Shown here: one piece after another, positions 950 to 63,207 of the stretch
Position numbering within the stretch: the stretch's first letter is position 1
Layout: each line of letters opens with the position of its first letter
Origin: a bacterium
Lineage (GTDB): Bacteria; Patescibacteriota; Minisyncoccia; Phycocordibacterales; CAIZLB01
DNA: 64,000 nucleotides
Assembly: GCA_037127815.1 (NCBI GenBank)
Contig: JBAXXP010000002.1
Span: forward strand, 41,490 to 105,489
Direction of reading: 5' to 3'
Program-made: the position numbers and the translations under genes
The notes under the pieces: generated by a model
Told to the model about the DNA's origin: nothing
Databases searched by the model: none
Seen by the model: the letters and a program-made list of their open reading frames with translations, nothing else

Positions 950-2755
950 ATGAAAGACTACTTAAAAGTATTTAAATTCAGTGTTAAGCAAGCAATAAAA
1001 TCAGCGCCAGTTTTGACAGTATCACTAGCTGTTATTATTTTTCTTAGTGCTCAAATTCCTTTCCTTGGATATAAAATATCAGCTGATATTATTAACAATT
1101 TGATTGATTATGCTAAAAATCCTGGAGCTGGACTAGCTATGGTTTTTAAACTTGCGTTATTGTGGGCGTTAGTTGAATCAGCAATGAGTTTATTAAGTAG
1201 ATTGAATGGTTATGTGAATGCAATTTGGAGATATAAACTACAAATAAACTCAGAAAAAATGTTTGCTGAACAGGCTACAAATCTTGATCTAGGTAGGCTT
1301 GAAAGTAAGGATTTTCAAAATTTAAAACAACGAGCATTGAGAAGGCAAATGTTCCCATTGGTTGAAGTTTTTTCATATTTCCTCTATATAATTAATCCGG
1401 TTTCCATAATCATAACCTCATCTCTTATTATTGGATTATTGGACTGGAGAATTTATTTAATTACAATAGTTTCGATAATACCTCAGATATTAATTGAAAG
1501 AAAATATGGAAAAAAGAGCTGGGGTATTTGGAGTAGTGGAGGTGGGGAGGATCAAAGAAGGTACTATGAATATAGATCACATATTACAAATACAGACAGA
1601 TTGCCTGAGGTTAAGAGATTTGGATCTTTAAATTATTTTAAAGAAAAAACATTTAACATATTTAAGGAGACAACTGAGAAATTGCAGAAGAATGAAGGTG
1701 AGAGATTCAAGAAATATACTGGAGTTGAGGTAATAAACATAGTCAGTTTTATAGCTGTTATATTTATTTTATTGACACATATTACAGATGGAAAGATATT
1801 AATTGGAGCCTTCCTTTTCTACTCTCAAACTATAGATAAGTTCTCTGGAGCGGTTTCAAACCTATTTGTTGGTATGGCATATCAGGAAGAAAATATCGCT
1901 CTATCAAATGATATTATTGACTTTCTTAATGTTAAACCTTTAATACAAACTCATAAGCCTGTGGAATTTCCTATTAAAACACCAGACGTCGGACCTGAAA
2001 TTATATTCGATAATGTTGTTTTTTCATATCCTGATACCGACAAGATAATACTTGATGGCGTATCGTTTATAATTAAATCAGGCGAGAGAGTTGGTCTTAT
2101 TGGAATAAACGGTGCTGGTAAGTCAACTATTGTTAAGTTGCTACTTAGAATGTATGATCCTACCTCAGGAAAAATCACAGTTGATGGAATTGATTTGAAA
2201 CATATAAGACCAGAAGATTGGTGGGTTCATTTATCTACTTTGATGCAGGACTTTAATAAATACACTGCCTTAACATTACGTGAATCCTTGATGATATGTA
2301 ATCTAGATAGAAGTAATAAAATCGATGAAGAAAGATTCATTGCAAGTCTTAAGAAAAGTAAGGCTGATGAGTTTGTGGAGAAATGGGATAATAAATATGA
2401 TTCAATGTTAGGAAAGGAATTTGCGGGAGAGTCATTATCAAAAGGACAGGCTCAGAAATTAGCACTCGCAAGAGCTTTCTACAAAGAAGCATCTGTTATG
2501 ATACTCGATGAACCAACAGCTTCAATTGATGCGGAATCAGAAATTGGAATATTTGAGGAATTAGAGAATCTACCTAGAACAGTTTCTATTCTTTATATTA
2601 GCCATGATATGGCAACAATCAGAAAGGCTGATAAAATAATGTTAATTGAAGATGGAAAGATTGTAGAAAGTGGTAATCATGATGAGCTTATAGATTTCAA
2701 TCGACATTACGCAAGGATATTTAATAGTCAGCTTAATAACTTAATACAGGAATAA
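950..2755 (+). CDS. ABC transporter, fused permease/ATP-binding exporter (MsbA-like)
   Basis: N-terminal multi-TM region, then Walker A GINGAGKST, ABC signature LSKGQAQKLALARA, Walker B ILDEPTASID and H-loop SHD. Confidence 0.85.
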   Translation: MKDYLKVFKFSVKQAIKSAPVLTVSLAVIIFLSAQIPFLGYKISADIINNLIDYAKNPGAGLAMVFKLALLWALVESAMSLLSRLNGYVNAIWRYKLQINSEKMFAEQATNLDLGRLESKDFQNLKQRALRRQMFPLVEVFSYFLYIINPVSIIITSSLIIGLLDWRIYLITIVSIIPQILIERKYGKKSWGIWSSGGGEDQRRYYEYRSHITNTDRLPEVKRFGSLNYFKEKTFNIFKETTEKLQKNEGERFKKYTGVEVINIVSFIAVIFILLTHITDGKILIGAFLFYSQTIDKFSGAVSNLFVGMAYQEENIALSNDIIDFLNVKPLIQTHKPVEFPIKTPDVGPEIIFDNVVFSYPDTDKIILDGVSFIIKSGERVGLIGINGAGKSTIVKLLLRMYDPTSGKITVDGIDLKHIRPEDWWVHLSTLMQDFNKYTALTLRESLMICNLDRSNKIDEERFIASLKKSKADEFVEKWDNKYDSMLGKEFAGESLSKGQAQKLALARAFYKEASVMILDEPTASIDAESEIGIFEELENLPRTVSILYISHDMATIRKADKIMLIEDGKIVESGNHDELIDFNRHYARIFNSQLNNLIQE

Positions 2756-2849
2756 ACCCTAGTGGTTGATTTTGTAAGATTGATTCAGGGCTATTTGCTC
2801 AAACATCGAAAATAAGTATAATTTTTAACATAACAACCCTTACAAAACC

Positions 2850-3503
2850 ATGAAAGACGACATACAAAAGCAAAACATAGGAGATATCCAATTAGATGAC
2901 GAGGAAACTACAGCACCATATACAGCTAGCGATATAAAGGATTCATTGGATGATGCAGAATCTGAAGACCTTGATGTGGAGGAGTTTGTTGATACTGATG
3001 AGGAAGGTAAGGAGGTTGGATCATCAGAAAAGCTAAAGCAATTAAGAGAAAAACTTAAGATTGCCATTAATGAGAAACAAGAATACCTAACAGGTTGGCA
3101 AAAGGAAAAAGCTGAGTTTGTAAACATAAGAAGAAGAGATGAGGAATCAAAACAAGAATTTCTAAAATTTGCTACTCAAAATCTATTGGAGGAATTTATA
3201 CCAGTTATAGATAGTTTCGATATGGCAATGTCTAATAAAGTAGCCTGGGAGGCGGTATCTTTGGAGTGGAGAAACGGAATGGAGAAAATTTATAATCAAT
3301 TCAAGGCAGTTTTGTCAAAGAATGATGTTACAGAATTTGGAGAAATAGGTGATAAGGCAGATCCTGCAAAATTCCATATGATTGGAGTAGATAGTACAAC
3401 CGATGCTAAACTCGATGAAACTGTTTCTTCGGTTTTACAAAAAGGATACATGGTCAAGGACAAAGTTTTAAGACCTGCGATGGTTAGGGTTTTTCAAAAA
3501 TAA
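2850..3503 (+). CDS. grpE: Nucleotide exchange factor GrpE
   Basis: Acidic N-terminus, coiled-coil (KLKQLREKLKIAINEKQEYLTGWQKEKAEFVNIRRR) and GrpE C-terminal fold motifs (LLEEFIPVIDSFDMAM). It sits just upstream of dnaK. Confidence 0.85.
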   Translation: MKDDIQKQNIGDIQLDDEETTAPYTASDIKDSLDDAESEDLDVEEFVDTDEEGKEVGSSEKLKQLREKLKIAINEKQEYLTGWQKEKAEFVNIRRRDEESKQEFLKFATQNLLEEFIPVIDSFDMAMSNKVAWEAVSLEWRNGMEKIYNQFKAVLSKNDVTEFGEIGDKADPAKFHMIGVDSTTDAKLDETVSSVLQKGYMVKDKVLRPAMVRVFQK

Positions 3504-10471: not shown

Positions 10472-10526
10472 CCGCTTAATTGCTACAACTCGTCATATAC
10501 GAGAAGTGCAATTGAGCGGTTTTTTT
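10472..10526 (+). terminator. Intrinsic terminator (long-loop hairpin)
   Basis: CCGCTTAATTGC ... GCAATTGAGCGG plus TTTTTTT, with an inner CTCGT/ACGAG hairpin in the loop. Confidence 0.5.
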
Positions 10527-11261: not shown

Positions 11262-11963
11262 TTGAAAATTGTACTAATTCCCGGACTTTTCAGTTCATTC
11301 TTTATGATGGAAAAATTGAAAGATCGGCTGAAAGGACTTTATCCCACAGCAAATATCGATTCAATTTCTTCGTCTTGGTTTACAAACGTAAGCAACGCAA
11401 AGGAAGAACTTGGAAAGCACATCTCTGACAACTATAGCCCTGATGAAGACTTGGTCATTATCGGGCATTCATTCGGTGGACAGCTTGCTACACACTTCAT
11501 CGATGATTCAAGGGTTAAGGCCGTGGTCACAATTGGTGCCCCCAGTCATAATCCAATGGATTATCCGTTTCGCGTGTGGCCCATCCAAAATCTCTACTTC
11601 TTTCAATCCCTGTTCAACTTCAGGTTCCGCCTGAAGGAAAAACATAGAGCGAAGTTATTTGGAGGAGTCCTGCCGGACTACGTCGAAGCACTGAGTTACG
11701 GATGGCTTGCGTTGCAAGTCTGCATGGGTGCCGTACTCGGTAACTTTGCCCCAAAGGTTAAGTCCGTAGGCAAACTGCTTGCATTTTATTGTGATGGAGA
11801 CCCAACTATTTTGCCGAAAGTTGTCAAGAAATTGGCACGTCGGTATCATGGAAGGGAGATTGGTATTTCATGCCCTCATCACTATCCAATTCTCGAGGAC
11901 AACAAGCTTGATTTGATCGTAAGTGAGACTCAAGCATACCTCACAGAACTCAAGGTTCGTTAA
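11262..11963 (+). CDS. Alpha/beta hydrolase (lipase/esterase-like, GHSFGG)
   Basis: TTG start with a GGAAAGG RBS, and the IIGHSFGG nucleophile elbow. Noticeably GC-richer than its neighbours. Confidence 0.55.
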   Translation: MKIVLIPGLFSSFFMMEKLKDRLKGLYPTANIDSISSSWFTNVSNAKEELGKHISDNYSPDEDLVIIGHSFGGQLATHFIDDSRVKAVVTIGAPSHNPMDYPFRVWPIQNLYFFQSLFNFRFRLKEKHRAKLFGGVLPDYVEALSYGWLALQVCMGAVLGNFAPKVKSVGKLLAFYCDGDPTILPKVVKKLARRYHGREIGISCPHHYPILEDNKLDLIVSETQAYLTELKVR

Positions 11964-12003
11964 TGCCTTCAACTATCCTGCAAGATAGACAAATTAGCAA
12001 CTG

Positions 12004-12030
12004 GCGCCCCCGAAAGGGGGGCGCTTTTTC
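12004..12030 (+). terminator. GC-clamp intrinsic terminator
   Basis: GCGCCCCC-gaaag-GGGGGCGC then TTTTTC. Confidence 0.6.
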
Positions 12031-12150
12031 ATTCCTATAAAATATGCATTAAATACTTGATTATTTATCAAAAATATGATGAAATATGACGCAGAGGTTG
12101 TTTTAAATAATCAGACCTCATTCAAAACAAACAAGTAGAATAATCAAATC

Positions 12151-12549
12151 GTGAAAAGAGAATACGGAGTAAGGGAAGGGCAAGTGAGACCGGCCCTAAT
12201 TGGTCCAATTGCTGAATTGCAAGCGAGGGCTTCAAAACCCGAGCCAAAGAAGGTACGCCGACATGGAGTTGGTGATCCTGATATCGGAGAATTGAAGATT
12301 GTTCGGATTAGCCAAGATTCGGCGAGAAAGTGTCAATTTTGCAATCGCAAGTTGGCAAACTGGAAAGTGCTGCTGTGGCGCAATCAGCAGGACCTGATGC
12401 AGTTTTGTTTTTGTGAATCTGATAGTGCTTGCGAGACTTCTGCTCGCAACACTGCCATGTTTCGTCCGCTTGGCAACCTGCGTTCTGTTCAGACACTCAA
12501 ACAACCTCAGCCAATGTCTCACGACAGACCTTGGCTGCTGAAGGACTGA
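12151..12549 (+). CDS. Hypothetical Cys-containing protein (GTG start) in a GC-rich insert
   Basis: 132-aa ORF with near-even GC, followed by a perfect GC-clamp terminator. No domain recognised, and coding status is uncertain. Confidence 0.25.
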   Translation: MKREYGVREGQVRPALIGPIAELQARASKPEPKKVRRHGVGDPDIGELKIVRISQDSARKCQFCNRKLANWKVLLWRNQQDLMQFCFCESDSACETSARNTAMFRPLGNLRSVQTLKQPQPMSHDRPWLLKD

Positions 12550-22436: not shown

Positions 22437-22510
22437 TGGGTAAGATGGGGCTCGAACCCATGACCTCTGGTTCCACAAACCAGCGCTCTAACCAACTGAG
22501 CTACATACCC
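22437..22510 (-). tRNA. tRNA-His (anticodon GTG)
   Basis: Reverse complement folds as a cloverleaf: GGGTATG / TA / GCTC-AGTTGGTTA-GAGC / G / CTGGT-TTGTGGA-ACCAG / AGGTC / ATGGG-TTCGAGC-CCCAT / CTTACCC / A. The anticodon loop is TT-GTG-GA. Discriminator is A73 and the -1 position is T, so no encoded G-1. Confidence 0.85.
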
Positions 22511-45718: not shown

Positions 45719-46555
45719 TTAATCACCACTCAATTGCTTCACACTTGAATTACCTAAAAGTGCTGTCATTTGCCATATAGCAACTTCATTCAATTTAAGA
45801 AGCCTGTCTTTTTGAAGTAATCCTGATTTTATATATTCAGAATTTAAATTCTCAAGATTAACTAAACAAACTAATTGAGAAACATCTGCGTAATCTCTAA
45901 TATTACCTTCAAGCTTTGGATTTTTGTTTCCCCACTCTTTTGCCGTCATACCAAACAGTGCCATATTCAAGACATCAGCTTCATTAGCATAAACTAACAC
46001 AGAATCCTTACTTGATAACTTTTGGGGTAATATGATATTTTCTTTTATTGAATCAGTGTGTATTTTATAGTTTATCTTAGTTAGTAATCTTTTGACATTC
46101 CAATCTGAGGAAAGTTTTTCTTGTTCATTTGACTTAAGTCTTTGAAACTCCTTGATTAAGTAAAGTTTAAACTCTGGCGAAAGCCATGTGGCAAATTCAA
46201 AAGCAATGTCCTTGTGAGCAAAAGTACCGCCACCATACCGTCCAGGGGAGGATTTTATGCCAATTGCAGCAGTCTTTTCTATCCATCTCTTTGAAGAAAG
46301 TATAAATCCATTAGAACCCACCTGTTTTTTAATGTTATCGAATTCGATAACATTAAAATTTGGGTTATACATTTGCTCCCAAAAACCCATAAAATCAACT
46401 GTATACCCGGTTCTTAGCCAGTTTGCAATAATGATACCTGTTAATTGAGGGTCTTTAAACTTGGCCATGTCCGTCAACGATATATAATCATCACCTTTAC
46501 TAGATAAGTTAATTGTAATTTCTTGGTTCTTTATTTGTATTTTTACCATCCCCAC
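45719..46555 (-). CDS. KilA-N domain protein (phage/plasmid-associated DNA-binding family)
   Basis: N-terminal region ...GDDYISLTDMAKFKD...ANWLRTGYTVDFMGFWEQ matches the KilA-N/APSES-like pattern. The C-terminal half is unassigned. Confidence 0.45.
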   Translation of the reverse strand: MGMVKIQIKNQEITINLSSKGDDYISLTDMAKFKDPQLTGIIIANWLRTGYTVDFMGFWEQMYNPNFNVIEFDNIKKQVGSNGFILSSKRWIEKTAAIGIKSSPGRYGGGTFAHKDIAFEFATWLSPEFKLYLIKEFQRLKSNEQEKLSSDWNVKRLLTKINYKIHTDSIKENIILPQKLSSKDSVLVYANEADVLNMALFGMTAKEWGNKNPKLEGNIRDYADVSQLVCLVNLENLNSEYIKSGLLQKDRLLKLNEVAIWQMTALLGNSSVKQLSGD

Positions 46556-48109: not shown

Positions 48110-48205
48110 GGGGTCAGGCGATTCAGCAGAATCGCCTACTGGGCCATTCAGCAGGATCGCCTACTGGGCGAGTTTGGTCTAAGATCTGAATCGTGTGCCT
48201 CACCC
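48110..48205. repeat. Composite long REP variant A
   Basis: GGGGTCAGGCGATTC-[two copies of a ~25-nt unit ATTCAGCAG(A/G)ATCGCCTACTGGGC]-...TGAATCGTGTGCCTCACCC. Confidence 0.7.
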
Positions 48206-49962: not shown

Positions 49963-52900
49963 TTATTTCTCTACAGTATTTGCCAAACTTGTGCACTTAG
50001 ACTCTAGAACAGCGGTTGCATTAGACTTAATAATTGCTCCGGTAGAAGATGTACCACTATTGTAATCCACACTACATGATAACGTATGTTTACCTACATT
50101 TTTTTGAACATCCTTAAACATTTTTCCACCGGTTGAGCTAGGTAGAAGACTTACACTTACCCCATCAATTGAACACGCTATTACATTAATACCTCTATAA
50201 GTTTTACCATCTGACATAACAATAGTAGGATCTATTTGACCAAGATATGCGCATTTTTTTGTTGTCTGATTTGCCCATGGTGGATTTGCTTTAAAACTCA
50301 TTCCACTCTCTATAGTTAGACCAGCACTTGTGCCAGTGCCAGTAGCACCATCTTCACCCAACTTAGGACATGCTGGGGTAATATTATCTACCCAAGTCTG
50401 GTCCCCCATTGGCTTCCCAGAGTATATTGCCCTAATACCAAATGAGACATTTGTATTATTTAGATATTGAGAAATATCTACAGTTGTACCTGTTATAATT
50501 TTGTGTACGGAGGTTAAATCAGTTTTATTTTTAACTTCAAAATCATAGCTTGTAGCATCTGGAACAGTATTCCAAGATAGGTTTGGGGATACACAATAGA
50601 ATAATGCTTGGACTTTAGGTTTATCAGAGACAGTTATAGCAAAAGATTTCCAAGCCGATGAAATACCGCTAACAGTTTCCGTAGCTTTGACTCTAAAAGT
50701 AAAATTTCCTTTTGCGTTCCATGTATTGGATGATGAAACCTCTACACCAGGTAGTACGGGCGTGCTTGTAGATACTTTAGTACCATCATTATTCCAATCA
50801 AATGTATATACGAATTTAGGCCCTGTATCAGCCTGTGCAAAAACTTTTTTGAAAGCAAAAATTATTGATGCAAGAAATGAAGTATTTTCTTTTTTTGCGA
50901 CAGGATTCAAATGAGACACAGCTGTATATGTTGTTGATAATCCGAGTGAAACAGCTGTTGGGCCGGTGACAGTTGGAGGTGAGATAGATAACGCTGCTGT
51001 GGGAGGAACAGTAATGGCGTAGGTGATTGGAGCGAAGGAGAAAGCATAGCCTGCTATCGTACTTTGGTCTCTGCTGAGCTGAGATTCGCATATATCATAG
51101 TAATCACATACGGTAGTGATAACATTAACATTGACTACACCGAAACCATTACTATGACCTCCAAAATAATCTTGATACAAAGTATACAAGTACGTAGCTT
51201 CTGACACATAACCATATGGAGTAATCCAGGAAAACATATTATATGCAAAATTGTAAGCAGCGATGTTAGTTTTTGCAAATCTACCAGGAATACACCCTAT
51301 ATTTTGTCCTGCCCAAGGATCAAAATGCTTATACCAAACAAATGTCCAATGAAACATATCACAAGTATTGATAGTATTACTTGTCTCATGTTGTACATCT
51401 GAAAAAGAAACCGTAATATTAGCACTACCAGGGCCGACTGCTGTACATTTATTTGACTCACAAGATACAACATTTGAATCATTCGACGTTAAAGTGGTAG
51501 TACCTGATTCTAAGGGAACTCCCACATTAAAACTTCCATACTCAAGATGTGAATACCACCCACTTTCAAAAGTCATCTCCCACGTTTGATAATCACTCTT
51601 ATAATAATTATTCCCATCCATCGGAGAAACTCCTCCATACGACGGATCATAAAGATACCAATATCCCTGTGATGGTAACGATGTGGCATTAATTACTTCT
51701 CCTACTGTTAGTAAACTTGTAGTTGCGTCATCTAGATTAACCCCAGATTTAATTAAGTTAAAATACTTAGATATTTTTCCACCCAAAGAAAAACTCCACG
51801 GGTCAGCAGGTGCATTATATCCAGTCCAAGATCCCCCTTGAGGCAGGTCAACACTAAAATCTGCGGTCCTTGTTGCTGCCTCCGTCTTATGAGAAAACGT
51901 AGGTGCGTAAAACGAAATGGAAAACAAAACAAACATCAACATTACTACACCACCCAAACTTCTCTTATTCCCCTTTACATTTATTTTATTTTTAATACTC
52001 ATCCACACTATCACTCCAAAAAATACTAATACAATTATTCCACCCAAGGCATACAAAATCCACGTCCAATAATCGACTTTGTAAACTGGGCATAATTTAG
52101 GATCAATATCCTTACATTTATAATTATCCTCGATCTTGTCTATCACATTACCATTGCTGTCTGTTATGGTTGTGATAGTTTTAAAGTTCACTAAATCTTT
52201 CTTAGGTGTAAACTTGCCAGCAATAGTCTCTATGATTCTACCAATTTTTCCGTTGTATTGCGTTTCTGAAATAACATTATTTTGATCATCAAATAAAACA
52301 GTATCGATATTTACAGGGTTTAATGCGTTTTGATTTGATCCATTTTGAAAACAAGTAAACAGTACTGCTTCTTGGCCGACTTTAATTGGGTACGTATTCA
52401 CGCCAAAATTATTTATTCTTGGATAATCAAAACCAGAAACAGTGAACCTTATATTAGATTCCGTTTTAACACTATAGATGCTTCTATCATTTTTCAAATT
52501 AGTATTATCAGCTTTTATATTCAAAAAATAAACCGGCGCGTCTATCTTCTTTGTCGTATATACCAAATTAACCTTACTATTTTCTGGAACTATTACCTCC
52601 TCTGTTTTTGTATCCACTTTATTTTTTTCCAATAATCCATCCCATTTATATAGAGAATATACCACTGTCATTTTTTCAGCAGTATTTGAAGGGTTAACTA
52701 ATAATATAGAAACATCTACTTTTTTACTATTGTCCTGATTAGACGCAAAAGACGACGTGTCATAAGGTTTATTATTCAGCGTGATTTTAGTTTGATCCAA
52801 ATAAATTTGTTGAGTATTATCTCCTTCAACTCTAAAACCTAGGTTTGAAGCTGTTGCATTATTTGTAAAAGATAGTCCAGATTGATTAAATCTATCGTCA

Positions 52901-53535
52901 TTATATACATAAAATAATATCTTATAATTACCCTTTGGCGAATTTAATGGCAGTACATGAGAGTAATTAACTGCAAGACTTTTACCAGCACCTAACGTTA
53001 TATTTTCTACTATATTAAAATCTTCCAACGTAATAATTTCTGATCTTAAATATTCTGGATTTGGAATATCCTTTACCAGCCTAGCTCTAACGGTTAGATT
53101 TGTGATTGGATATTTATTATTATTTTTTATTACACCACGAATAATCATAACATCTCCAGGATTGTATGTGTTCATATCATTAGTAAGATCTACATCAACA
53201 CTACCAAAAGTTGAGTAATCGGTACACTGAGCTGGTTGACCTTGCTTGTATGCTGTTAAATCTACCGTTGTAGTCGCCTTTTGATTTCTAAAAATAAATG
53301 AAGAGCTTGCATTTAGAAGCAATTGCTTGTAAGTAGATGATGAGACTAAAGCCCTGTCTGGTAAGTATAAAATAGGACGAGTAGTTGTTGCAAAATTATA
53401 TGTATGAGCATTTTTTTGATCTAACCTGAACCCATTCTTGTCATAGATTTTTGGATCAAGTTTAGTTTGAGCAAAAACAGAGGTAGATACACTTAACAAA
53501 ATCAATGCAAATAGCAGCAAAAAAATCTTTTTCAT
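49963..53535 (-). CDS. Giant (1190 aa) secreted/surface protein with signal peptide, internal TM segments and beta-rich Ser/Thr/Asn-rich domains
   Basis: Signal peptide MKKIFLLLFALILLSVSTSVFA, two hydrophobic segments near residues ~490-545, and a C-terminal region with an FN3-like signature (SWNTVPDATSYDFEV). Confidence 0.7.
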   Translation of the reverse strand: MKKIFLLLFALILLSVSTSVFAQTKLDPKIYDKNGFRLDQKNAHTYNFATTTRPILYLPDRALVSSSTYKQLLLNASSSFIFRNQKATTTVDLTAYKQGQPAQCTDYSTFGSVDVDLTNDMNTYNPGDVMIIRGVIKNNNKYPITNLTVRARLVKDIPNPEYLRSEIITLEDFNIVENITLGAGKSLAVNYSHVLPLNSPKGNYKILFYVYNDDRFNQSGLSFTNNATASNLGFRVEGDNTQQIYLDQTKITLNNKPYDTSSFASNQDNSKKVDVSILLVNPSNTAEKMTVVYSLYKWDGLLEKNKVDTKTEEVIVPENSKVNLVYTTKKIDAPVYFLNIKADNTNLKNDRSIYSVKTESNIRFTVSGFDYPRINNFGVNTYPIKVGQEAVLFTCFQNGSNQNALNPVNIDTVLFDDQNNVISETQYNGKIGRIIETIAGKFTPKKDLVNFKTITTITDSNGNVIDKIEDNYKCKDIDPKLCPVYKVDYWTWILYALGGIIVLVFFGVIVWMSIKNKINVKGNKRSLGGVVMLMFVLFSISFYAPTFSHKTEAATRTADFSVDLPQGGSWTGYNAPADPWSFSLGGKISKYFNLIKSGVNLDDATTSLLTVGEVINATSLPSQGYWYLYDPSYGGVSPMDGNNYYKSDYQTWEMTFESGWYSHLEYGSFNVGVPLESGTTTLTSNDSNVVSCESNKCTAVGPGSANITVSFSDVQHETSNTINTCDMFHWTFVWYKHFDPWAGQNIGCIPGRFAKTNIAAYNFAYNMFSWITPYGYVSEATYLYTLYQDYFGGHSNGFGVVNVNVITTVCDYYDICESQLSRDQSTIAGYAFSFAPITYAITVPPTAALSISPPTVTGPTAVSLGLSTTYTAVSHLNPVAKKENTSFLASIIFAFKKVFAQADTGPKFVYTFDWNNDGTKVSTSTPVLPGVEVSSSNTWNAKGNFTFRVKATETVSGISSAWKSFAITVSDKPKVQALFYCVSPNLSWNTVPDATSYDFEVKNKTDLTSVHKIITGTTVDISQYLNNTNVSFGIRAIYSGKPMGDQTWVDNITPACPKLGEDGATGTGTSAGLTIESGMSFKANPPWANQTTKKCAYLGQIDPTIVMSDGKTYRGINVIACSIDGVSVSLLPSSTGGKMFKDVQKNVGKHTLSCSVDYNSGTSSTGAIIKSNATAVLESKCTSLANTVEK

Positions 53536-54845: not shown

Positions 54846-54866
54846 ATTTTATATTATACCTTATTT

Positions 54867-54962: not shown

Positions 54963-55559
54963 ATGCCAAGACAACCAAGAGTTGATATTGCTAATAATTA
55001 TTATCACTGCATTAATCGTGCAAGCGCTAGATTAAAGATTAATTTTAATGATGATGATTTTAGATTAATAATAAAAGTGCTTTTTGAAGCACAAAAAAAA
55101 TTTAATATTGATATATTAGCATTTGCTATAATGAATAATCACTTTCATTTAGTCATAAAAACAAATCAAGATAAACAAATGTCTCAATTCATGAAATGGT
55201 TTACCTTTGTTCATACTAAAAGATGGCATTTTATAAACAAGACAGCCGGAACCGGACATCTATATCAAGGCAGATACAAGTCATTTATAATTTTAGATCA
55301 GAGACATCTGGAAACCGTCATCAGATATGTTGAAAGAAACCCTTTAACGGCAAATATTGTCAAGAATATACTAGACTGGAAATACTCAAGTTTATATCAG
55401 AGATATGTTTCAAATAAAGTGAATTCTATAGCACAGACTCAAATGCAAATAAAATTAGCTGATTGGCCCTATAATGAATCAATAGATTATTTGAAAAATC
55501 TTATTGAACCATACACAAATAAGGAAATAGAGAAAGCTCTTGAGTCAGAAATGGAGTAA
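54963..55559 (+). CDS. REP-associated tyrosine transposase (RAYT; HUH/Y1 transposase, COG1943 / IS200-like family)
   Basis: NYYHCINRASAR..., HUH motif NHFHLVIKT, and the hallmark GHLYQGRYKSFIILDQRHLETVIRYVERNPLTANIV...YSSLYQRY. Confidence 0.8.
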   Translation: MPRQPRVDIANNYYHCINRASARLKINFNDDDFRLIIKVLFEAQKKFNIDILAFAIMNNHFHLVIKTNQDKQMSQFMKWFTFVHTKRWHFINKTAGTGHLYQGRYKSFIILDQRHLETVIRYVERNPLTANIVKNILDWKYSSLYQRYVSNKVNSIAQTQMQIKLADWPYNESIDYLKNLIEPYTNKEIEKALESEME

Positions 55560-55648: not shown

Positions 55649-56128
55649 CTAACGAGTCTGTCGACCCCCTGAAATTGAAAAATGTTTTGAAATAATATCA
55701 CAGTTCTTTGGCTCATGTTTGTCGCCAAGAAATTGTTCAATCTCCAACATGTGACTGATGAATATAAAGAATGCGGTAGGTGCTGGTGTAATTAACGTAG
55801 TCACATTATTATTATTCAAACTATGCTTACTACAATCCAGCCAATCAACTTCTTCAAGCTCCTTAGGTCTGACCCTAAGTAAATTAAATAATGAATCATA
55901 GACAACTCCAGCCGTCATCAAAGCCCTTGGGGTTGGCGAATGAAAAATCCTAATGTCATTCTTGTGCGGTTTGATCAGATTACCAAGGACCTGAACGTTC
56001 CTTTGGCAGATCTCCACAGAATTCCACTTAAGCCTAGCGCCGTCCGCTGTGACGTATTGAGCAGCATGGCGCATAACAGCGTATCTGGAATTCAAAAAAC
56101 GATTCACGTAACTCTTACTACTTCTCAT
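55649..56128 (-). CDS. SixA-like histidine phosphatase (phosphohistidine phosphatase family), paralog 1
   Basis: AVMRHA (RH[GA] catalytic motif), HSPTPRALMTAGVV (SPxxRAxxTA) and FIFISHMLEIEQF (catalytic His), matching the SixA pattern IMRHGDA / SPFLRAEQT / VISHLPLV. Confidence 0.45.
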   Translation of the reverse strand: MRSSKSYVNRFLNSRYAVMRHAAQYVTADGARLKWNSVEICQRNVQVLGNLIKPHKNDIRIFHSPTPRALMTAGVVYDSLFNLLRVRPKELEEVDWLDCSKHSLNNNNVTTLITPAPTAFFIFISHMLEIEQFLGDKHEPKNCDIISKHFSISGGRQTR

Positions 56129-56291: not shown

Positions 56292-56831
56292 TTAAAAATC
56301 AGTCAGCAATCTGCCATTCACGATGACATGTTGTCTTGTGATAATCGAACAACTGCACGGCTCCCAAGCAGCAGAACCGATAAAATTGCACATATTTGGC
56401 ATATGAGTAATAAAGAATGAAAAATGAAGATCTCCCTCTGAACAAACTGTGTTCATATTTGCATTAATACTCCCCTCTTTTCCGTCTTCGCAACCCAACC
56501 ATTGAACTGGCTGAATATTAGAAACGGGAATGTTATGACAAGCAAACTCAGACCTAACCATCTGGGCGGTGAGCTCAGCCCGCCTCAACGGAGAGTAAAA
56601 AATACTGACCACAACATTGGGATTATCGGTGAAGTCCTCAAGTTCATGAGTTACAAGAACCTGAATATTTCTTCTGCCGATTTTGACTGAATTACGGCAA
56701 AGCTCAATTCCACTTTGTCCTTCAAAATAATGTGCATGCCGCATCACAGCATAACCATCACGTGTAAACCTACCACTGTAACTGTTCATATTATTGAATA
56801 TTTGAATTGTTTTGATAGAACGAGTAGACAA
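56292..56831 (-). CDS. SixA-like histidine phosphatase, paralog 2 (TTG start)
   Basis: YAVMRHAHYF, YSPLRRAELTAQMV, FFITHMPNMCNF. Confidence 0.45.
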   Translation of the reverse strand: MSTRSIKTIQIFNNMNSYSGRFTRDGYAVMRHAHYFEGQSGIELCRNSVKIGRRNIQVLVTHELEDFTDNPNVVVSIFYSPLRRAELTAQMVRSEFACHNIPVSNIQPVQWLGCEDGKEGSINANMNTVCSEGDLHFSFFITHMPNMCNFIGSAAWEPCSCSIITRQHVIVNGRLLTDF

Positions 56832-56888
56832 GAGCGCCTACTTCCGATTGTAATATTACATCTATTTTATTCTTTGTACAGTCAATTT

Positions 56889-56935
56889 GGGGTCAGGCGA
56901 TTCTGGTCGCAGACCTGAATCGTGTGCCTGACCCC
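56889..56935. repeat. Long REP variant C (extended-stem palindrome)
   Basis: GGGGTCAGGCGATTC-TGGTCGCAGACC-TGAATCGTGTGCCTGACCCC. Confidence 0.75.
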
Positions 56936-56940
56936 AAATA

Positions 56941-58458
56941 TTAGAAAGCTAGATGATCCTCATCCCCCATGAATATGGTTCCACTATCATCCGACATTCT
57001 TTTCATGAAGTTTGTAATTCTTTCATCAATCATAATATGACGTCTAACTAATGGAGTTTTTAGAATCATTCCATCTAAACTTCTACACCTACTTAAAGCA
57101 ACATAAGCTTGTCCATGGGTAAATGTTCCTCTACCAAAGTCTACAACAACATTACTATAAGTTTTTCCCTGTCCTTTGTGAATTGTAATTGCCCAAGCGA
57201 GTCTAATTGGAAACTGAGTAAATGTTCCAACTACGTCGGTGTCTACTGAGTCAAAATCTTTATCATAAGAAAATTTCACCATTTCCCAAGTGTACTTTGG
57301 TACCAAATAATTTTCACCGTTTTCTAATCGAACAAAAATTTCCTGCTTGTTTTCATTTATACTTGTTATGGTTCCAAGGTCACCATTTACCCATCTTGCT
57401 TCCTTGTCATTATTCAACATCATAATCCTTGCGCCTTCTTTTAATGCAAGACATTCATTGGTTGGAAAATTTCTTTCAAATGATCCAGATTTTTTACCCT
57501 TAAATATTATTTTATTTGTTTCGAGTTCATTCAGCTTCCCAAGATTAAGTGCATCAGCCATCGCATTTGTTGTGACAAGAAAAATATAATCACTATATTG
57601 CATTGGGTCAATATTATCCTCCATTGGATTTAGATATCTCTTATTTAAAAGTGTTAAATGTGAATCTTTAAGATTTCCAGACCTCACACCTTCTAGTATA
57701 TCTATGAATTTATCATCGTCCTGTCTGTAGATTTTACTTAGCTCTATAAGTTCAAAATCTGCTTTCAGAAATACTTTTGAATCAAAAAAGTATGGACTCT
57801 TATAGTACGATGAAAACATTTCTTCCTCATAGCTAGTTACAACTGGTGGAAGCTGAAACATATCCCCTACTACAATTATTTGAGTACCGCCAAATGGAGT
57901 ATTTTTATCTTTTCCATTTAATCGCATAAACGTGTCTACACAATCAAAAAGATCAGCGCGAACCATAGAAATTTCATCAATAATTATTGTATCTATGTTT
58001 TTATAAATCGCAGTGCTTCCTGTTGCTTTCTTTATGGACATAGGACTTACATTTATTCCAAATTTAAAGAACGAGTGAATAGTTTGTCCACTAATGTTTA
58101 CTGCGGAAACCCCAGTTGGTGCGAGTATGACAATTTTCTTTTTTGTTGTAGCTTTGAAATACCTAACAAGAGTTGTTTTTCCAGTTCCCGCTTTTCCAGT
58201 AAGAAAAATATTTGTTGAAGTACTTTCCATTTTGTTAAGTGCAACGAGCGTCTCATCATTCAATTCCATATTTGCAAATTCTTTGGAAAGTTTTTCCGCT
58301 AGAGCTTTATCTCCAGATCCTGGATTTTGTTTTTCCGATTTTTCAGCTGCAACTTTTGCAAGGGTTTTTTTAAAAATTTCTGTCTTAGATGGGCCAGTTT
58401 TGCTGGCTTTGGATTTCTTGTTGAATTTGGAATATGAAGAGAATGTGGAAAATGGCAT
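56941..58458 (-). CDS. Pif1/RecD-like SF1B DNA helicase
   Basis: Walker A LTGKAGTGKTTL, Walker B IIIDEISMV, GDMFQLPPV and motif V AITIHKGQGKTY. The start is set at MPFSTF because the upstream 21 codons of the track ORF are just the GC terminator hairpin at 58482-58505. A TATAAT sits 7 nt before the ATG (leaderless-like). Confidence 0.75.
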   Translation of the reverse strand: MPFSTFSSYSKFNKKSKASKTGPSKTEIFKKTLAKVAAEKSEKQNPGSGDKALAEKLSKEFANMELNDETLVALNKMESTSTNIFLTGKAGTGKTTLVRYFKATTKKKIVILAPTGVSAVNISGQTIHSFFKFGINVSPMSIKKATGSTAIYKNIDTIIIDEISMVRADLFDCVDTFMRLNGKDKNTPFGGTQIIVVGDMFQLPPVVTSYEEEMFSSYYKSPYFFDSKVFLKADFELIELSKIYRQDDDKFIDILEGVRSGNLKDSHLTLLNKRYLNPMEDNIDPMQYSDYIFLVTTNAMADALNLGKLNELETNKIIFKGKKSGSFERNFPTNECLALKEGARIMMLNNDKEARWVNGDLGTITSINENKQEIFVRLENGENYLVPKYTWEMVKFSYDKDFDSVDTDVVGTFTQFPIRLAWAITIHKGQGKTYSNVVVDFGRGTFTHGQAYVALSRCRSLDGMILKTPLVRRHIMIDERITNFMKRMSDDSGTIFMGDEDHLAF

Positions 58459-58481
58459 GGGTTTGATTATATCATAAAAAT

Positions 58482-58505
58482 GGCGCGGGGCTTTCGCCCC
58501 GCGCC
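58482..58505 (-). terminator. GC-clamp terminator for gene 58548..58880
   Basis: GGCGCGGGGC-tttc-GCCCCGCGCC, followed on the minus strand by TTTTTAT. Confidence 0.6.
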
Positions 58506-58547
58506 ATGCTGAATGCCACAAAATGTGAACACTCAGACTTGCCTAAC

Positions 58548-58880
58548 CTAGAAACTGACATACCAAATACCGTCGGTATGGAGATATGCATCACCATCTT
58601 GACCAACAGAATCAGGTCTGACAATTCTGGTGATTTTTGACTTTGGCAGAAGTGATGCCCTGTAAAGTGAGACTCCAGCAACGCAGTGAATCGCAAGGAC
58701 TACCCAAAGGTCATCCTCGTCTTTTCCAGCGGAACTTTGTCCCCCTCCAGGATCTTCATATCTTCCAACGATCAAAGAATAATTACCGGCCTGAAAAGAA
58801 CCAACTTTGTCCGCAACTAGAGCTGATGCACCAGTTGGGCTCTTGTCACTCAAGAATGTCATTGCCTGTTGTCTGTTCAT
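58548..58880 (-). CDS. Hypothetical protein (110 aa)
   Basis: ORF with ~50% GC and no recognisable motif. Confidence 0.35.
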   Translation of the reverse strand: MNRQQAMTFLSDKSPTGASALVADKVGSFQAGNYSLIVGRYEDPGGGQSSAGKDEDDLWVVLAIHCVAGVSLYRASLLPKSKITRIVRPDSVGQDGDAYLHTDGIWYVSF

Positions 58881-58946
58881 TTTGTTTGTTCTACTTTTTG
58901 GTTGATGCTGTTTAGAAACAAAATTTATTATACTGAATCAAGTATT

Positions 58947-59270
58947 TTAACCCTCGACACAGATAACTCCACTACGATCTCGACTACAGTAATACGCCTT
59001 GTAAGGAACAGTACCATTTGGAGATGTACGAAACACCCGACCTTCAATATTCCAATGTTCACCTGACCCATCTTCACGGGTCATTCCATCAATAGTGGCA
59101 TAAAAAGATGCTTTGCCAGGCCGAGTGTCGGTGGTGGTGAAATACACGGCCGTCTCTTGACTCATGTTTCCCCCAAAAGAGCCAGCGTGAGGTCTGTGAA
59201 GAGAATCCCACATCTGCCCCGCACTTGGGCCACCTGTAACATTTAATCCAATATTTTTTTCTTGTGCCAT
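58947..59270 (-). CDS. Hypothetical protein (107 aa)
   Basis: ORF with ~50% GC, Gly/Thr-rich, no motif. Confidence 0.35.
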   Translation of the reverse strand: MAQEKNIGLNVTGGPSAGQMWDSLHRPHAGSFGGNMSQETAVYFTTTDTRPGKASFYATIDGMTREDGSGEHWNIEGRVFRTSPNGTVPYKAYYCSRDRSGVICVEG

Positions 59271-59511
59271 AACGGCTGTTTTCTATTTGTACAAAGGGTT
59301 AGATATGGAACCCTAACAACCATCTTATTCCCCACCATACGGCGTCAGGAACGGCTTATCCATAACGAATAAGAACTCGCTTACTATATTGACTAAAATG
59401 GATGGTGTCAATAAATATGAAAATAAAAAAAAATGCCCCGCCGACTCCCTAAGGAGCGGCGGGGCGGACAACAAGCTAGCCTGAGCCAACAAAATTGTCC
59501 ATCAAATCAAG

Positions 59512-60627
59512 TCAAACTATCAAATGCCTGAGCAAGACAGGTTCCTTTCCGCGTCCGCCCCCACCCAACAATGAAGCATTAGCCTTCACTTTGGATCCCG
59601 GATTGGTTTTTTCTACAGGTTTTCCTTCAGGTAACACCTTTAGACATTTTGGTGCCCTTACAGCAAACTGAACCTTGCGTGGCTCAGTATGGACAAACCT
59701 GCTTAGTGCAACGTCATTCTTCTCAACTTCGTTAGAATCTCCGCCTGTCACAGTATCAGTTCCCTGTTCCTGCGTAGGTGTTACAACATCATCCTTGGGC
59801 TTTTCAGCCTTTTGGACAAAATCGCAAATATTCTTTCCGAAGAAAACATACAAGGCCTTTTGAGCCAACTGTTGAACTTGAGGACACGACATAAGGGAGA
59901 GCGTATCGATGAGTACAGCTTTTTCAAGAATATGATTCTGCTTTGTAGCACTGACAGCTGTAGCTAAATCCAGCACATTTTGCGAGGTCATATTCCGAAA
60001 ATCGTTTTGATACCTAAGAATTGCATCCTTCTGTCCGATTTGCCAATCCTTCTTGGGGATTTCTTGGAATCGAACCACTTCACGACACTCTAATCCAAAG
60101 GCTTCGAGATGCTCCGCTTCAAGCTGCATTTCTCTTTCAAAACGAATCCGGCGATACTCCTTCGTGTTATCATTTTCACCATCGACGGTTGCAAACAACT
60201 CCTTCTCATGCCAGCGAGATAACCCATTGGGTCCATCACTCCTTGCACATATTAGTTTGATAACTTTGAAGTCACCTTGCACAATCACATCAATACCTTC
60301 ACCCAGAAGATGAACACCATCAATATCAATGCGCCTAGACTCCAAGGTATGAGCCCATTCAGGTGCATTGCCAGGAAGCCCTTTAGCGTGACGCATTTCC
60401 AAAATTTCTTCCGACAGACGACTGCGTCCATGACGGATGCCGTCAATAGGTTCTGTGATGTAAACATCCTTCATAAAATCTTCGTCAAAGGGAATTATTA
60501 TCCAGAAATATCCAAACTCGCCTTCTACGCTATCTGTTGGAATAAATCCTGATTCATAAATGCAATTGCATGATGCCATCAGAATTGACGATGGATTGAT
60601 AAGTCTAACAGTTTTCTTGTTTTTCAT
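59512..60627 (-). CDS. Hypothetical protein (371 aa), first gene of the GC-rich helicase cluster
   Basis: Long GC-richer ORF with no recognisable domain and a Gly/Lys-rich C-terminus. Confidence 0.4.
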   Translation of the reverse strand: MKNKKTVRLINPSSILMASCNCIYESGFIPTDSVEGEFGYFWIIIPFDEDFMKDVYITEPIDGIRHGRSRLSEEILEMRHAKGLPGNAPEWAHTLESRRIDIDGVHLLGEGIDVIVQGDFKVIKLICARSDGPNGLSRWHEKELFATVDGENDNTKEYRRIRFEREMQLEAEHLEAFGLECREVVRFQEIPKKDWQIGQKDAILRYQNDFRNMTSQNVLDLATAVSATKQNHILEKAVLIDTLSLMSCPQVQQLAQKALYVFFGKNICDFVQKAEKPKDDVVTPTQEQGTDTVTGGDSNEVEKNDVALSRFVHTEPRKVQFAVRAPKCLKVLPEGKPVEKTNPGSKVKANASLLGGGGRGKEPVLLRHLIV

Positions 60628-61029
60628 ACTAACTTGGTGTGCACTTTTTCGGAGTACAACTAAACCGTCTGTTTAAATAACGAGTACCCCATTTTAGTTG
60701 GTACGAACGTTCAGTTTCCTAAAAAGGAAGCCAACAGACTGACTTACTGCACTCATTCGAGCACAGCTTTCTAGATATTTTCATTCACCACCTAACACTT
60801 GAGTATTCTGCCAAGTTAAAAATATACAGGAAGCTGTGCTCGTACAACACTTTTTTCAAAAAACTTTCAATACAAATTATAGCAGTAAATCCCTTTTTGT
60901 CAATGGTTACCCAGTACCCTTTGTTGACAAAAACGCTCCTTTGTATTAATTTCATTACTGGTATGTATATTGACCACACGGGCCAATCTGTTCCTTACCA
61001 ATCAAACTACATCAAGCAAATATAGCATT

Positions 61030-61635
61030 ATGAAAGCATTCGGTATCGTATTCGCTACACTAACAGCAATCGTCCTTGTGATTCTTGGTATCACAGGCAT
61101 CTATTTCATTACAACCTACAACGGTCTAGTGGCAAAACAGGAGGCACTCAGTAAAAGCTGGGGACAAGTGGAGGTGGTGTGTCAGCGAAGAGCTGATCTC
61201 ATCCCCAATCTCGTTGCTACAGTCAAGGGTTACGCAGCGCATGAAAAGGGCGTCTTTGAAAATGTTGCTGAAGCCCGTGCAAAAGCGGGTTCAATCAGAT
61301 TGGACGCCGGTGAAATGGCCAACAATCCTGAGCAGCTTCAGAAATTCTTAGCCGCTCAAAAAGAGCTCTCTGGAGCACTGACAAAACTGCTCGCAGTGAG
61401 TGAAAACTATCCGACTCTCAAGGCGGATCAAGGTTTCCTTACACTGCAGGGGCAGATCGAAGGTTCCGAGAATCGCATTGCGGTTGAACGTGGAAATGCG
61501 CAGAAAGCAACCAATGAATACAATGTACTCGTCAAAGGGTTCTTCTCTTCAATGGTTGCCGGAAGCAAATTCCAGCCAGTCAAATATTTTGAAGCTGATG
61601 CTGGTGCCAAGGTGGCACCCAAGGTCAACTTCTGA
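61030..61635 (+). CDS. lemA: LemA family membrane protein
   Basis: N-terminal TM, then YNGLVAKQEALSKSWGQVEVVCQRRADLIPNLVATVKGYAAHE, the LemA signature. Confidence 0.8.
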   Translation: MKAFGIVFATLTAIVLVILGITGIYFITTYNGLVAKQEALSKSWGQVEVVCQRRADLIPNLVATVKGYAAHEKGVFENVAEARAKAGSIRLDAGEMANNPEQLQKFLAAQKELSGALTKLLAVSENYPTLKADQGFLTLQGQIEGSENRIAVERGNAQKATNEYNVLVKGFFSSMVAGSKFQPVKYFEADAGAKVAPKVNF

Positions 61636-62739: not shown

Positions 62740-63207
62740 TTAGCCGTAAGGCTGATGATTACCAACCCTGATGCAAATGAGTACGTAGTCATCCTCAGGC
62801 ATCGCTGTGCGTTCCTCAAAAAAGAAAAATCGGATTAGACGTTCATCTTCCTTATCTTCAAATTGGTTATGAGCAAAACCGTAGGAATGGAATACAAACC
62901 ACTTGTCTTCATCCTCATCATTGCAAATGAGCTTTCTTTTCTCACCTCGCTCACGCAGCAAGCCAACGATAAGACCTGCTTCAACCCGAGATGCCAGGCG
63001 ATAACCTGAATCCCTAAGAGTTTCCACGATTTCATCATGAGTGATTGGAATTTCTTCCAAGCCGAGCGCCTCGAATGGATCTACAACAACCTTTGAATCC
63101 CCTTCTTGTTCCTTGTCAGTGACGTAAAGAAGATTAATTACCTCAACCTTCCTGCCCAAACGTGATGCAATCATCATGTTAAATCTGCCATCTTTAACCA
63201 GTTTCAT
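62740..63207 (-). CDS. Hypothetical acidic protein
   Basis: 155-aa ORF, no motif. Confidence 0.3.
   Translation of the reverse strand: MKLVKDGRFNMMIASRLGRKVEVINLLYVTDKEQEGDSKVVVDPFEALGLEEIPITHDEIVETLRDSGYRLASRVEAGLIVGLLRERGEKRKLICNDEDEDKWFVFHSYGFAHNQFEDKEDERLIRFFFFEERTAMPEDDYVLICIRVGNHQPYG

Follow-up and report, generated by a model that had tools for sequence, protein, structure and literature searches.

Do four closely spaced minus-strand genes of a Patescibacteria chromosome, one of them encoding a helicase, work together as a mobile or anti-phage module? The question was raised by an original prediction, made from the letters of the sequence, about positions 56941 to 60627 of the 64-kb stretch of DNA analysed here (hereafter "the window"), and its starting point is borne out by the list of open reading frames (ORFs): 59512–60627 (371 aa, here called p371), 58947–59270 (107 aa, p107), 58548–58880 (110 aa, p110) and 56941–58458 (505 aa, the helicase) all lie on the minus strand. 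We find that the block is three separate transcription units within a hypervariable stretch of the chromosome, and that the unit containing p371 begins with what appears to be a structured RNA of an undescribed class. The reading we favour, at a probability of about 0.5, is that the three units are independent and that the leader RNA of the p371 unit is a cis-acting control element for p371 synthesis. The NCBI records of these proteins are hypothetical proteins of a metagenome-assembled genome (MAG) labelled "bacterium" (MEI60423xx). Identical sequence is present on seven further contigs from lake metagenomes, which belong to the same species, and the closest genomes as judged by the helicase are those of uncultured lake bacteria, a Saccharibacteria-labelled MAG and Patescibacteria MAGs.

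The division into units follows from the transcription signals, all of which are on the minus strand. The p371 unit has a promoter at 60876–60903 (TTGACA, a 16-nt spacer and a TG-extended TATAAT, 12/12 matches to consensus; promoter scan and sequence), from which transcription would start near 60869, and an intrinsic terminator at 59425–59467 (CCGCCCCGCCGCTCC...GGAGTCGGCGGGG followed by nine T's, read from the sequence). The p107 and p110 genes, apparently co-transcribed, come next; the scan places their promoter at 59383–59411 (TTGACA, 17 nt, TATAGT, 11/12), followed by a leader of about 105 nt whose folding is modest (z -2.3), and their terminator at 58474–58507 (a 12-bp stem with 10 GC pairs and a T tail). 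Directly after this terminator lies an extended -10 sequence, TGaTATAAT (58466–58474, read from the sequence), the end of which is 7 nt from the helicase ATG (58458), so the helicase mRNA is leaderless or nearly so. The original prediction had given the helicase its own promoter after a GC-clamp terminator; scan and sequence agree with it, and such an arrangement argues against a single operon. Since a terminator and a fresh promoter stand between p371, p107-p110 and the helicase, these are three units rather than one four-gene module. No Shine-Dalgarno sequences are found upstream of genes in the window, and the genome is without them in general. Several start codons have a TATAAT-like hexamer within 25 nt (examples are the one at 58466–58474, before the helicase gene, and those upstream of 49963–53535, 53597 and 54845), which suggests that leaderless or very-short-leader mRNAs may be frequent in this organism. 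The intergenic region upstream of p371, earlier put at 400 bp, is in fact 342 bp long (60628–60969), and it holds the p371-unit promoter and a conserved structured RNA.

This leader RNA (60640–60853, about 215 nt) was delineated with RNAalifold from an alignment (A3) of 11 distinct loci that share a leader of about 200 nt. The regions upstream of the p371 homologues, when aligned, are far more alike than the proteins are, with a mean pairwise identity of 65% for the RNA (nucleotides) versus 33% for the protein (amino acids), and all the family loci examined have a near-consensus promoter 160–250 nt ahead of the start codon. The consensus structure has 41 pairs in five helices, and 18 of the pairs have changes on both sides. 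Helix P1 (60841–60820 with 60780–60759) has 10 covarying pairs; the long-range helix P2 (60738–60733 with 60673–60668) is 100% paired, with two covarying pairs, and encloses P3 (60728–60726 with 60719–60717), which is short and well paired, and P4 (60704–60700 with 60688–60684), in which four of the five pairs covary. P5 (60658–60653 with 60645–60640) is 88% paired, is made of segments designated Y and Z, and ends 12 nt before the AUG. Segment Y (60659–60652, GUACUC) can alternatively pair with a segment X (60754–60747), which closes the junction; the X:Y duplexes have energies of -9.5 to -15.6 kcal/mol in 10 of the 11 loci, and both X:Y and P5 show some compensatory change. A different alternative pairing, GGGGUAC:GUACUCC, is not kept across the loci and was discarded.

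In the consensus, 95.5% of the alignment cells are standard pairs versus 32–58% when the partners are slid by one to three columns, double changes occur at 18 pairs (34 cells) versus 2–9 pairs in the slid controls, and none of 500 shuffles reached the observed values. P1, P2, P3 and P4 are the best supported helices. One invariant G-U pair and many G-U variants are compatible with the sense strand only, and a covariance model scores the sense strand at 181 bits versus 37 bits for the antisense strand. For the window leader the minimum free energy is -72 kcal/mol (z -5.6). With 11 sequences, an all-against-all scan for covariation was too noisy. There is thus a conserved, covarying element in this 5' untranslated region (UTR), as there is in riboswitches as a kind. 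A scan of the whole window against Rfam 15 (4227 families) at gathering thresholds returned one tRNA (22437–22510, the only one in the window) and no match to the leader, a permissive Rfam scan of 60560–60960 gave chance hairpins far under threshold (the best being mir-85, 24 versus 68 bits), and we found no description in the literature of such an RNA motif in these bacteria. The kind to which this RNA belongs, the structured 5' leader, is well known, and the family appears to be new.

The leader and the p371 protein family, to judge from their distribution, travel together across divergent hosts. The RNA precedes the family gene in 11 of 13 family loci, which represent at least eight different neighbourhoods, and in all 11 distinct RNA-bearing loci a p371-family ORF lies directly downstream, which is the location of an autoregulatory leader. 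The leader's 3' part, written as a degenerate pattern, has one match in the window, one in each family locus and none elsewhere in the loci examined; in the JGI metagenome collection it has two matches, each directly upstream of a family ORF, and in IMG/VR it has none. The 64-kb window contains only one copy of the leader RNA, and three further family members also have it. A strong G+C-rich hairpin and a T-run follow the stop codon in 11 of 12 cassettes inspected, with none at the locus designated L030 (sampled loci are given here by such L numbers where they must be told apart). The p371 unit is, as far as its sequence can tell, a self-contained cassette that consists of a strong promoter, the leader of about 215 nt, the ORF and a strong terminator.

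The p371 protein is not an orphan. A word-index homologue search found only the queries themselves for all three proteins encoded upstream of the helicase, and an exhaustive search for p371 with phmmer (HMMER) found 12 matches beyond its own cluster, at 28–39% identity and E-values of 3e-46 to 1e-6. The weakest of these, the ankyrin-repeat protein P0031, was set aside as likely spurious, leaving 11 credible remote homologues, and p371 belongs to a small, undescribed protein family of the Patescibacteria (candidate phyla radiation). The family alignment (A1) contains the motifs GLPxNAPxWA, FATxDGxxDxT, GLTxEEAERLF and P...FAxKALWVFxG; two members are without the first 80 or so residues, the C-terminus is variable and basic, and the cassette ORF is 220–410 aa long. 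In all hosts examined, the family ORF has a higher GC content than the genes next to it. In p371 the core comprises residues 5–275 or so, and the basic tail (275–371) is predicted to be disordered. AlphaFold2 with alignment A1 gave a pLDDT (predicted local distance difference test score) of 73, with residues 1–274 modelled confidently, versus 29 for a single-sequence AlphaFold run; the model has a putative alpha/beta N-domain, a three-stranded beta-meander and an eight-helix domain, followed by the disordered tail. The original prediction had recommended structure prediction for the upstream proteins, and for p371 this gave a confident core model, but residues 1–274 matched no fold in the structure libraries compared. 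Likewise p371 has no NCBIfam match, Pfam and PHROG scans of 12 family members found none, the family profile has no match among PDB sequences, and Pfam and the alignment revealed no nuclease, recombinase, reverse-transcriptase or NTPase motif or domain in the family. Searches of IMG/VR and of phage and plasmid collections with the p371 protein, the leader RNA and the RNA pattern gave no match.

The neighbourhoods of the family gene are quite diverse. At L022 the order is an IS30-like transposase, the family gene, a 127-aa ORF, the orthologous helicase, p115 and cdaA, and at L024 it is a p155 homologue, the family gene, DUF6159, an HhH-like ORF and the helicase. Elsewhere the family gene is found with HAD and then PDT/PDH (L023); after type IV pilus genes and before DUF5670, LemA and M48 peptidase genes (the loci of protein P0025); with rpsT and a TrmB-like gene (L027/L028); between TIM and PGK on one side and HIT and RecJ on the other (L034); and within the ribosomal-protein gene cluster, where it separates rplB from rpsS and has YafQ-like and HicA/HicB-like toxin-antitoxin genes as neighbours (L030/L031). 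At L030 the gene is called at 2103–2861, with a true start probably at 1998, at L031 it is at 2665–3423, and a 289-aa unclassified ORF adjoins it. Near the window's own copy, p155 (62740–63207) has no family match; its L024 homologue (455–907, 55% identical) is directly upstream of the family gene there. The LemA-TPM pair of the window sits between p155 and p371 on the opposite strand, and a LemA gene, as noted above, is also near the P0025 family member.

How might such a leader work? We suppose that it would act in cis on p371 synthesis. The effector would most likely be p371 itself, by feedback binding, because the leader is tied to one protein family, which favours the protein over a metabolite; a small ligand would be the alternative. 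In the hypothetical X:Y/P5 switch, Y would pair either with X, so that the three-way junction is closed, or with Z, giving P5, whose end is 12 nt from the AUG, and in a genome without Shine-Dalgarno sequences a structural change this near to the start codon could set translation initiation. Several points weigh against this reading. The cis action, the binding partner, the switch and the transcription start are things that we infer. X and Z both complement Y, so the proposed switch could be an echo of that relationship, and in the model-based alignment X:Y is 74% paired and an outer helix, P0, 61%. A riboswitch is usually found in front of various gene families that belong to a single pathway, and the restriction of the p371 leader to one family speaks against its being a metabolite sensor. 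With about 200 nt and a multi-helix junction, the leader is bigger than autoregulatory leaders typically are, and the raised GC content of the family ORF in every host is not accounted for. The leaders of the two most divergent members, at L030 and L037, keep at most a P1-like hairpin. Finally, a consensus promoter with a P1-like long hairpin and no P2–P4 core precedes unrelated ORFs at L009 (6440–6600, covariance score 32 bits) and L016 (8830–8990, 26.5 bits), so part of the leader (P1) may be a more general module than the P2–P4 core. The L009 hairpin is at the site syntenic with the L024 cassette; we looked there for a decayed p371 gene and found no protein signal, only the promoter and the hairpin. 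These P1-like hairpins could be remnants or a more general leader module.

The most serious competitor of cis control, though we think it doubtful, is that the leader RNA and p371 form a functional ribonucleoprotein, with the RNA as partner, scaffold or guide, and that the cassette is a mobile accessory system for defence or counter-defence or a selfish element. The RNA is strictly tied to one protein family and better conserved than the protein; with about 200 nt and five helices it is closer to the guide and scaffold RNAs of IS110, IscB and TnpB than to simple leaders; and the cassette brings a strong promoter and terminator of its own. At least eight unrelated neighbourhoods contain it, with toxin-antitoxin genes at the rplB-rpsS copy and the IS30-like transposase at another, and it is absent from the sampled flanks of species whose helicases are equally close. 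The GC-rich family ORFs and the predicted basic, disordered tail of p371 would also fit. However, the family has none of the catalytic motifs or domains listed above, no flanking repeats or target duplications were seen, the virus, phage and plasmid collections contain no match, and apart from the loops there is no obvious variable, guide-like segment between the constant parts of the structure. Nor does a terminator separate the RNA from the ORF, which means that the RNA is transcribed within the mRNA. It is possible, at somewhat long odds, that the leader and the p371-family protein constitute an unrecognised ribonucleoprotein system of Patescibacteria, RNA-scaffolded or RNA-guided, that moves as a promoter-RNA-ORF-terminator unit. 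Far less probable is an action of the conserved hairpins as DNA, for example as single-strand signals for an HUH/REP-type transposase or as a recombination site. The genome does have a RAYT (Y1 transposase) gene and many REP hairpins (below), and covariation alone cannot separate RNA from single-stranded DNA, but at each locus the position of the element is precisely between a consensus promoter and a start codon, the G-U pair evidence is compatible with the transcribed strand only, the antisense score of the covariance model falls to 37 bits, the leader sequence is unrelated to the REP family, and a long-range helix such as P2, with P3 and P4 inside it in a junction, is what folded RNA typically shows.

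What then of the helicase, around which the original prediction had built its module? That it is an SF1B Pif1-like protein is confirmed: its match to PF05970 (E 1.9e-33, 116.4 bits, cut-off 25.9) covers the PIF1 N-terminal profile near its full length, it has a Walker A (GKAGTGKTT) and a Walker B (IIDEISM) motif, and its SH3_13 and Pif1_2B matches are under their Pfam cut-offs. Orthologues 78–84% identical are present at L008-L011, L016, L022 and L024, and one 69% identical at L012; in six of these loci (L008, L009, L011, L012, L022 and L024) a convergent cdaA gene follows the helicase, directly or via a p115 homologue. In the window about 8.8 kb separates the helicase from cdaA, an interval that contains p179, p159, a RAYT gene, p115, an amidase gene, a gene for a 1190-aa protein and two small ORFs, several of which are adjoined by REP copies. 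On the upstream side, p371, p107 and p110 are absent from the sampled helicase flanks of five related species (helicases 79–83% identical). For four of these five loci 10 kb of upstream DNA was compared, and the L011 contig begins within the helicase gene; L011 and L012 have little or no upstream DNA. No p371-family gene was found in the sampled upstream DNA of L008-L010 and L016, even by profile search. Upstream anchors are ddl (in L016, 82% identical) and a 181-aa gene (in L009, 74%), and the genes between these anchors and the helicase are unrelated to those of the window and differ in every species. Since the whole ddl-helicase interval differs from species to species, there is no clean empty site; rather, a hypervariable stretch is bordered by ddl and the 181-aa gene on one side and by helicase-p115-cdaA on the other. 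These comparisons show that the block straddles one core gene and this stretch, that the helicase is an ordinary, vertically inherited core gene and not island cargo, and that p371, p107 and p110 are accessory genes of the variable region. The comparison with related genomes that had been recommended gave a divided answer: the three upstream genes are absent from the sampled flanks, but the helicase is syntenic with cdaA.

The block had been described as about half GC; its three upstream genes are indeed atypically GC-rich (p371 43.4%, p107 46.9%, p110 45.6%, against a window background of 35.8%), though they fall short of one-half, and the helicase gene, at 33.8% with a third-codon-position value (GC3) of 0.25, is like the background. 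The GC-rich zone (58.5–63.3 kb) consists of p110, p107, p371, LemA, TPM and p155, and on the other side of the helicase p159 and p179 have moderately raised values of 0.40–0.41; as the helicase has background composition, the zone does not equal the four-gene block. Synteny and native composition are what the original prediction itself had named as refuting its view, and for the helicase both are found. A single mobile or anti-phage module of all four genes, with the helicase as motor and three partners, now seems very improbable. The genes are on one strand and tightly packed, the helicase core matches the PADLOC candidate helicases PDC-S68 (1.5e-23) and type IV RecD (3.8e-20), and a family gene is again found 0.7–1.6 kb upstream of the orthologous helicase in L022 and L024. 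But the units are divided by terminator-promoter pairs, and the helicase keeps its place with cdaA where the sampled upstream DNA is without the three partners. Its matches in PADLOC-DB 2.0 are only 150–400-residue helicase-core stretches of models of 700–1270 residues, that is, the generic core of much longer models, and the three partners match nothing there. p107 and p110 occur in no other genome, and most p371-family loci have no helicase nearby, so a functional link of p371 to the helicase is not borne out either. The family gene is near the helicase only in the clade that shares the helicase-cdaA synteny (window, L022 and L024), and it is without the helicase in at least five other contexts; the proximity in L022 and L024 is attributed to shared ancestry of that chromosomal region. 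A repeat scan of 56500–61300 for att-like direct repeats, which had been expected at about 56.9 and 60.7 kb, found only chance matches of 12–13 nt near the borders. The four proteins contain no recombinase or integrase domain, there is no integrase or tRNA gene at the borders, and the nearest mobile gene, the RAYT gene, is 1.4 kb beyond the helicase. The proposed module is largely refuted.

The p107-p110 unit is different again. Each of these two proteins has as relatives only its own 90% cluster among 5.8 billion protein clusters, and neither has a match in Pfam, PADLOC, PHROGs, NCBIfam or PDB sequences. Together with the p371 results this upholds the earlier statement that none of the three upstream proteins matches a recognised family. 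The two thus have no detected relative outside the species. One apparent homologue of p107, P0019, is a chimeric ORF on a 621-bp ENA contig in which the N-terminus of a glycosyltransferase of family 2 is fused to p107 residues 4–56 at a common QEKNIGL word; it is most likely an assembly artefact and was rejected. p107 and p110 have no similarity to one another and so were not accepted as paralogues, and the resemblance of p110 to an 81-aa ORF near the L023 homologue (both begin MNRxQA) is not significant. Are these two ORFs genes at all? An unlikely but reasonable alternative is that the region is transcribed without coding for protein, and that these two (and perhaps further small GC-rich ORFs nearby) arose in it by chance. 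In its favour are the lack of any homologue, the overlapping antisense ORFs of 92 and 65 aa, the absence of Shine-Dalgarno sequences, and the fact that an ORF of about 108 codons is not very rare at 45% GC (by our estimate about 0.2 are expected per such region). The last sign but one counts for little, as Shine-Dalgarno sequences are absent genome-wide anyway, and the tandem ORFs fill the unit between an 11/12 promoter and a strong terminator and have a higher GC content at first than at third codon positions, like other coding regions of the genome, which suggests real genes. All seven contigs of the species carry an identical sequence, which is uninformative on coding status. We take the unit, then, to be probably species-specific cargo.

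The long palindrome at 56889–56935 (GGGGTCAGGC...GCCTGACCCC), at the 3' end of the helicase gene, had been described as a REP element that delimits the block. The palindrome is real, but it belongs to a window-wide repeat family and is not an island border: it shares the outer stem of a 34-nt REP palindrome, TTTGGGGTCAGGCACCATGGTGCCTGACCCCAAA, of which there are at least nine further intergenic copies across the window (at 10524, 27482, 43500, 44281, 45640, 46800, 54459, 54864 and 55561, with related long copies at 48167 and 48939; the start of the long copy considered here is also given as 56896). The copies at 54864 and 55561 flank the RAYT-type Y1_Tnp gene (54963–55559), the arrangement that characterises REP/RAYT systems. 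In L016 the helicase is directly followed by an orthologous RAYT gene (63% identical). Between the helicase and p115 the window has p159 (55649–56128) and p179 (56292–56831), which are paralogues (36% identical) of raised GC content that both contain YAVMRHA and weakly resemble SixA-type histidine phosphatases (E about 0.04); the relatives, in which p115 directly follows the helicase, have neither gene. The gene for the 1190-aa protein (49963–53535) has a paralogue just outside the window that encodes a 1056-aa TPR protein (L001 3140–6310), the last 347 residues of which are 71% identical. A KilA-N domain protein gene (45719–46555, E 1.6e-17) is REP-flanked and lies between an SPFH/Band 7 gene and cdaA. 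Elsewhere in the window a second GC-rich pocket (11262–12549) contains two ORFs with 44–49% GC and a GC3 of 0.46, in surroundings of about 35%.

Patescibacteria have tiny genomes with many unclassified genes, and they are mostly uncultured and probably symbiotic. To our knowledge, reports of regulatory or non-coding RNA elements from them are few. A strongly covarying RNA of about 200 nt that is more conserved than its protein offers a concrete way into one such unclassified family, and the leader can be probed in vitro for ligand or protein binding without culturing the organism. If it is a regulator, it would be a new leader or riboswitch-like class in a genome without Shine-Dalgarno-based initiation; if it is a partner RNA, it would be part of a new RNA-protein system. 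This locus also shows that "helicase plus unknown neighbours" predicts defence modules poorly when the helicase is a syntenic core gene.

Comparison with known systems places the parts of the locus in quite different company. The helicase is an ordinary, stand-alone housekeeping-type gene among the Pif1 SF1B helicases (PF05970), and the palindromes and Y1 transposase of the window match REP/RAYT systems, the element at 56889 being a long variant of a genome-wide intergenic element. A type III toxin-antitoxin system was considered for the p371 cassette and rejected, as there is no repeat pair within 60628–60969 (scan of 56500–61300) and no terminator between the RNA and the ORF. The cassette shares with the IS110 bridge RNA and the IscB/TnpB omega RNA systems their layout of a strong promoter, a structured RNA of about 200 nt and an ORF of 220–410 aa, as well as the strict coupling of RNA and protein and the patchy distribution in unrelated chromosomal contexts. 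It differs from them in that the p371 family has no DEDD/RuvC, Tnp, HNH or other catalytic domain, motif or fold match, and no element ends, target duplications or evident programmable loop. For IS110 in particular, the 12 family members have no Pfam match to PF01548 or PF02371, no conserved acidic tetrad among their invariant columns, and the p371 model has no RuvC-like fold match. Autoregulatory ribosomal-protein leaders and translational riboswitches are the other natural comparison. The p371 leader matches none of the Rfam families, exceeds most protein-binding leaders in size, does not recur before the various genes of a pathway as riboswitches do, and precedes a protein that has no assigned function or fold; moreover, since the host mRNAs have no Shine-Dalgarno sequences, sequestration of the ribosome-binding site is not directly applicable. 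Like those elements, however, it is a covarying 5' UTR element between a promoter and a start codon, with conserved unpaired nucleotides and possibly exclusive pairings near the start codon, and like the ribosomal-protein leaders it is tied to a single protein family.

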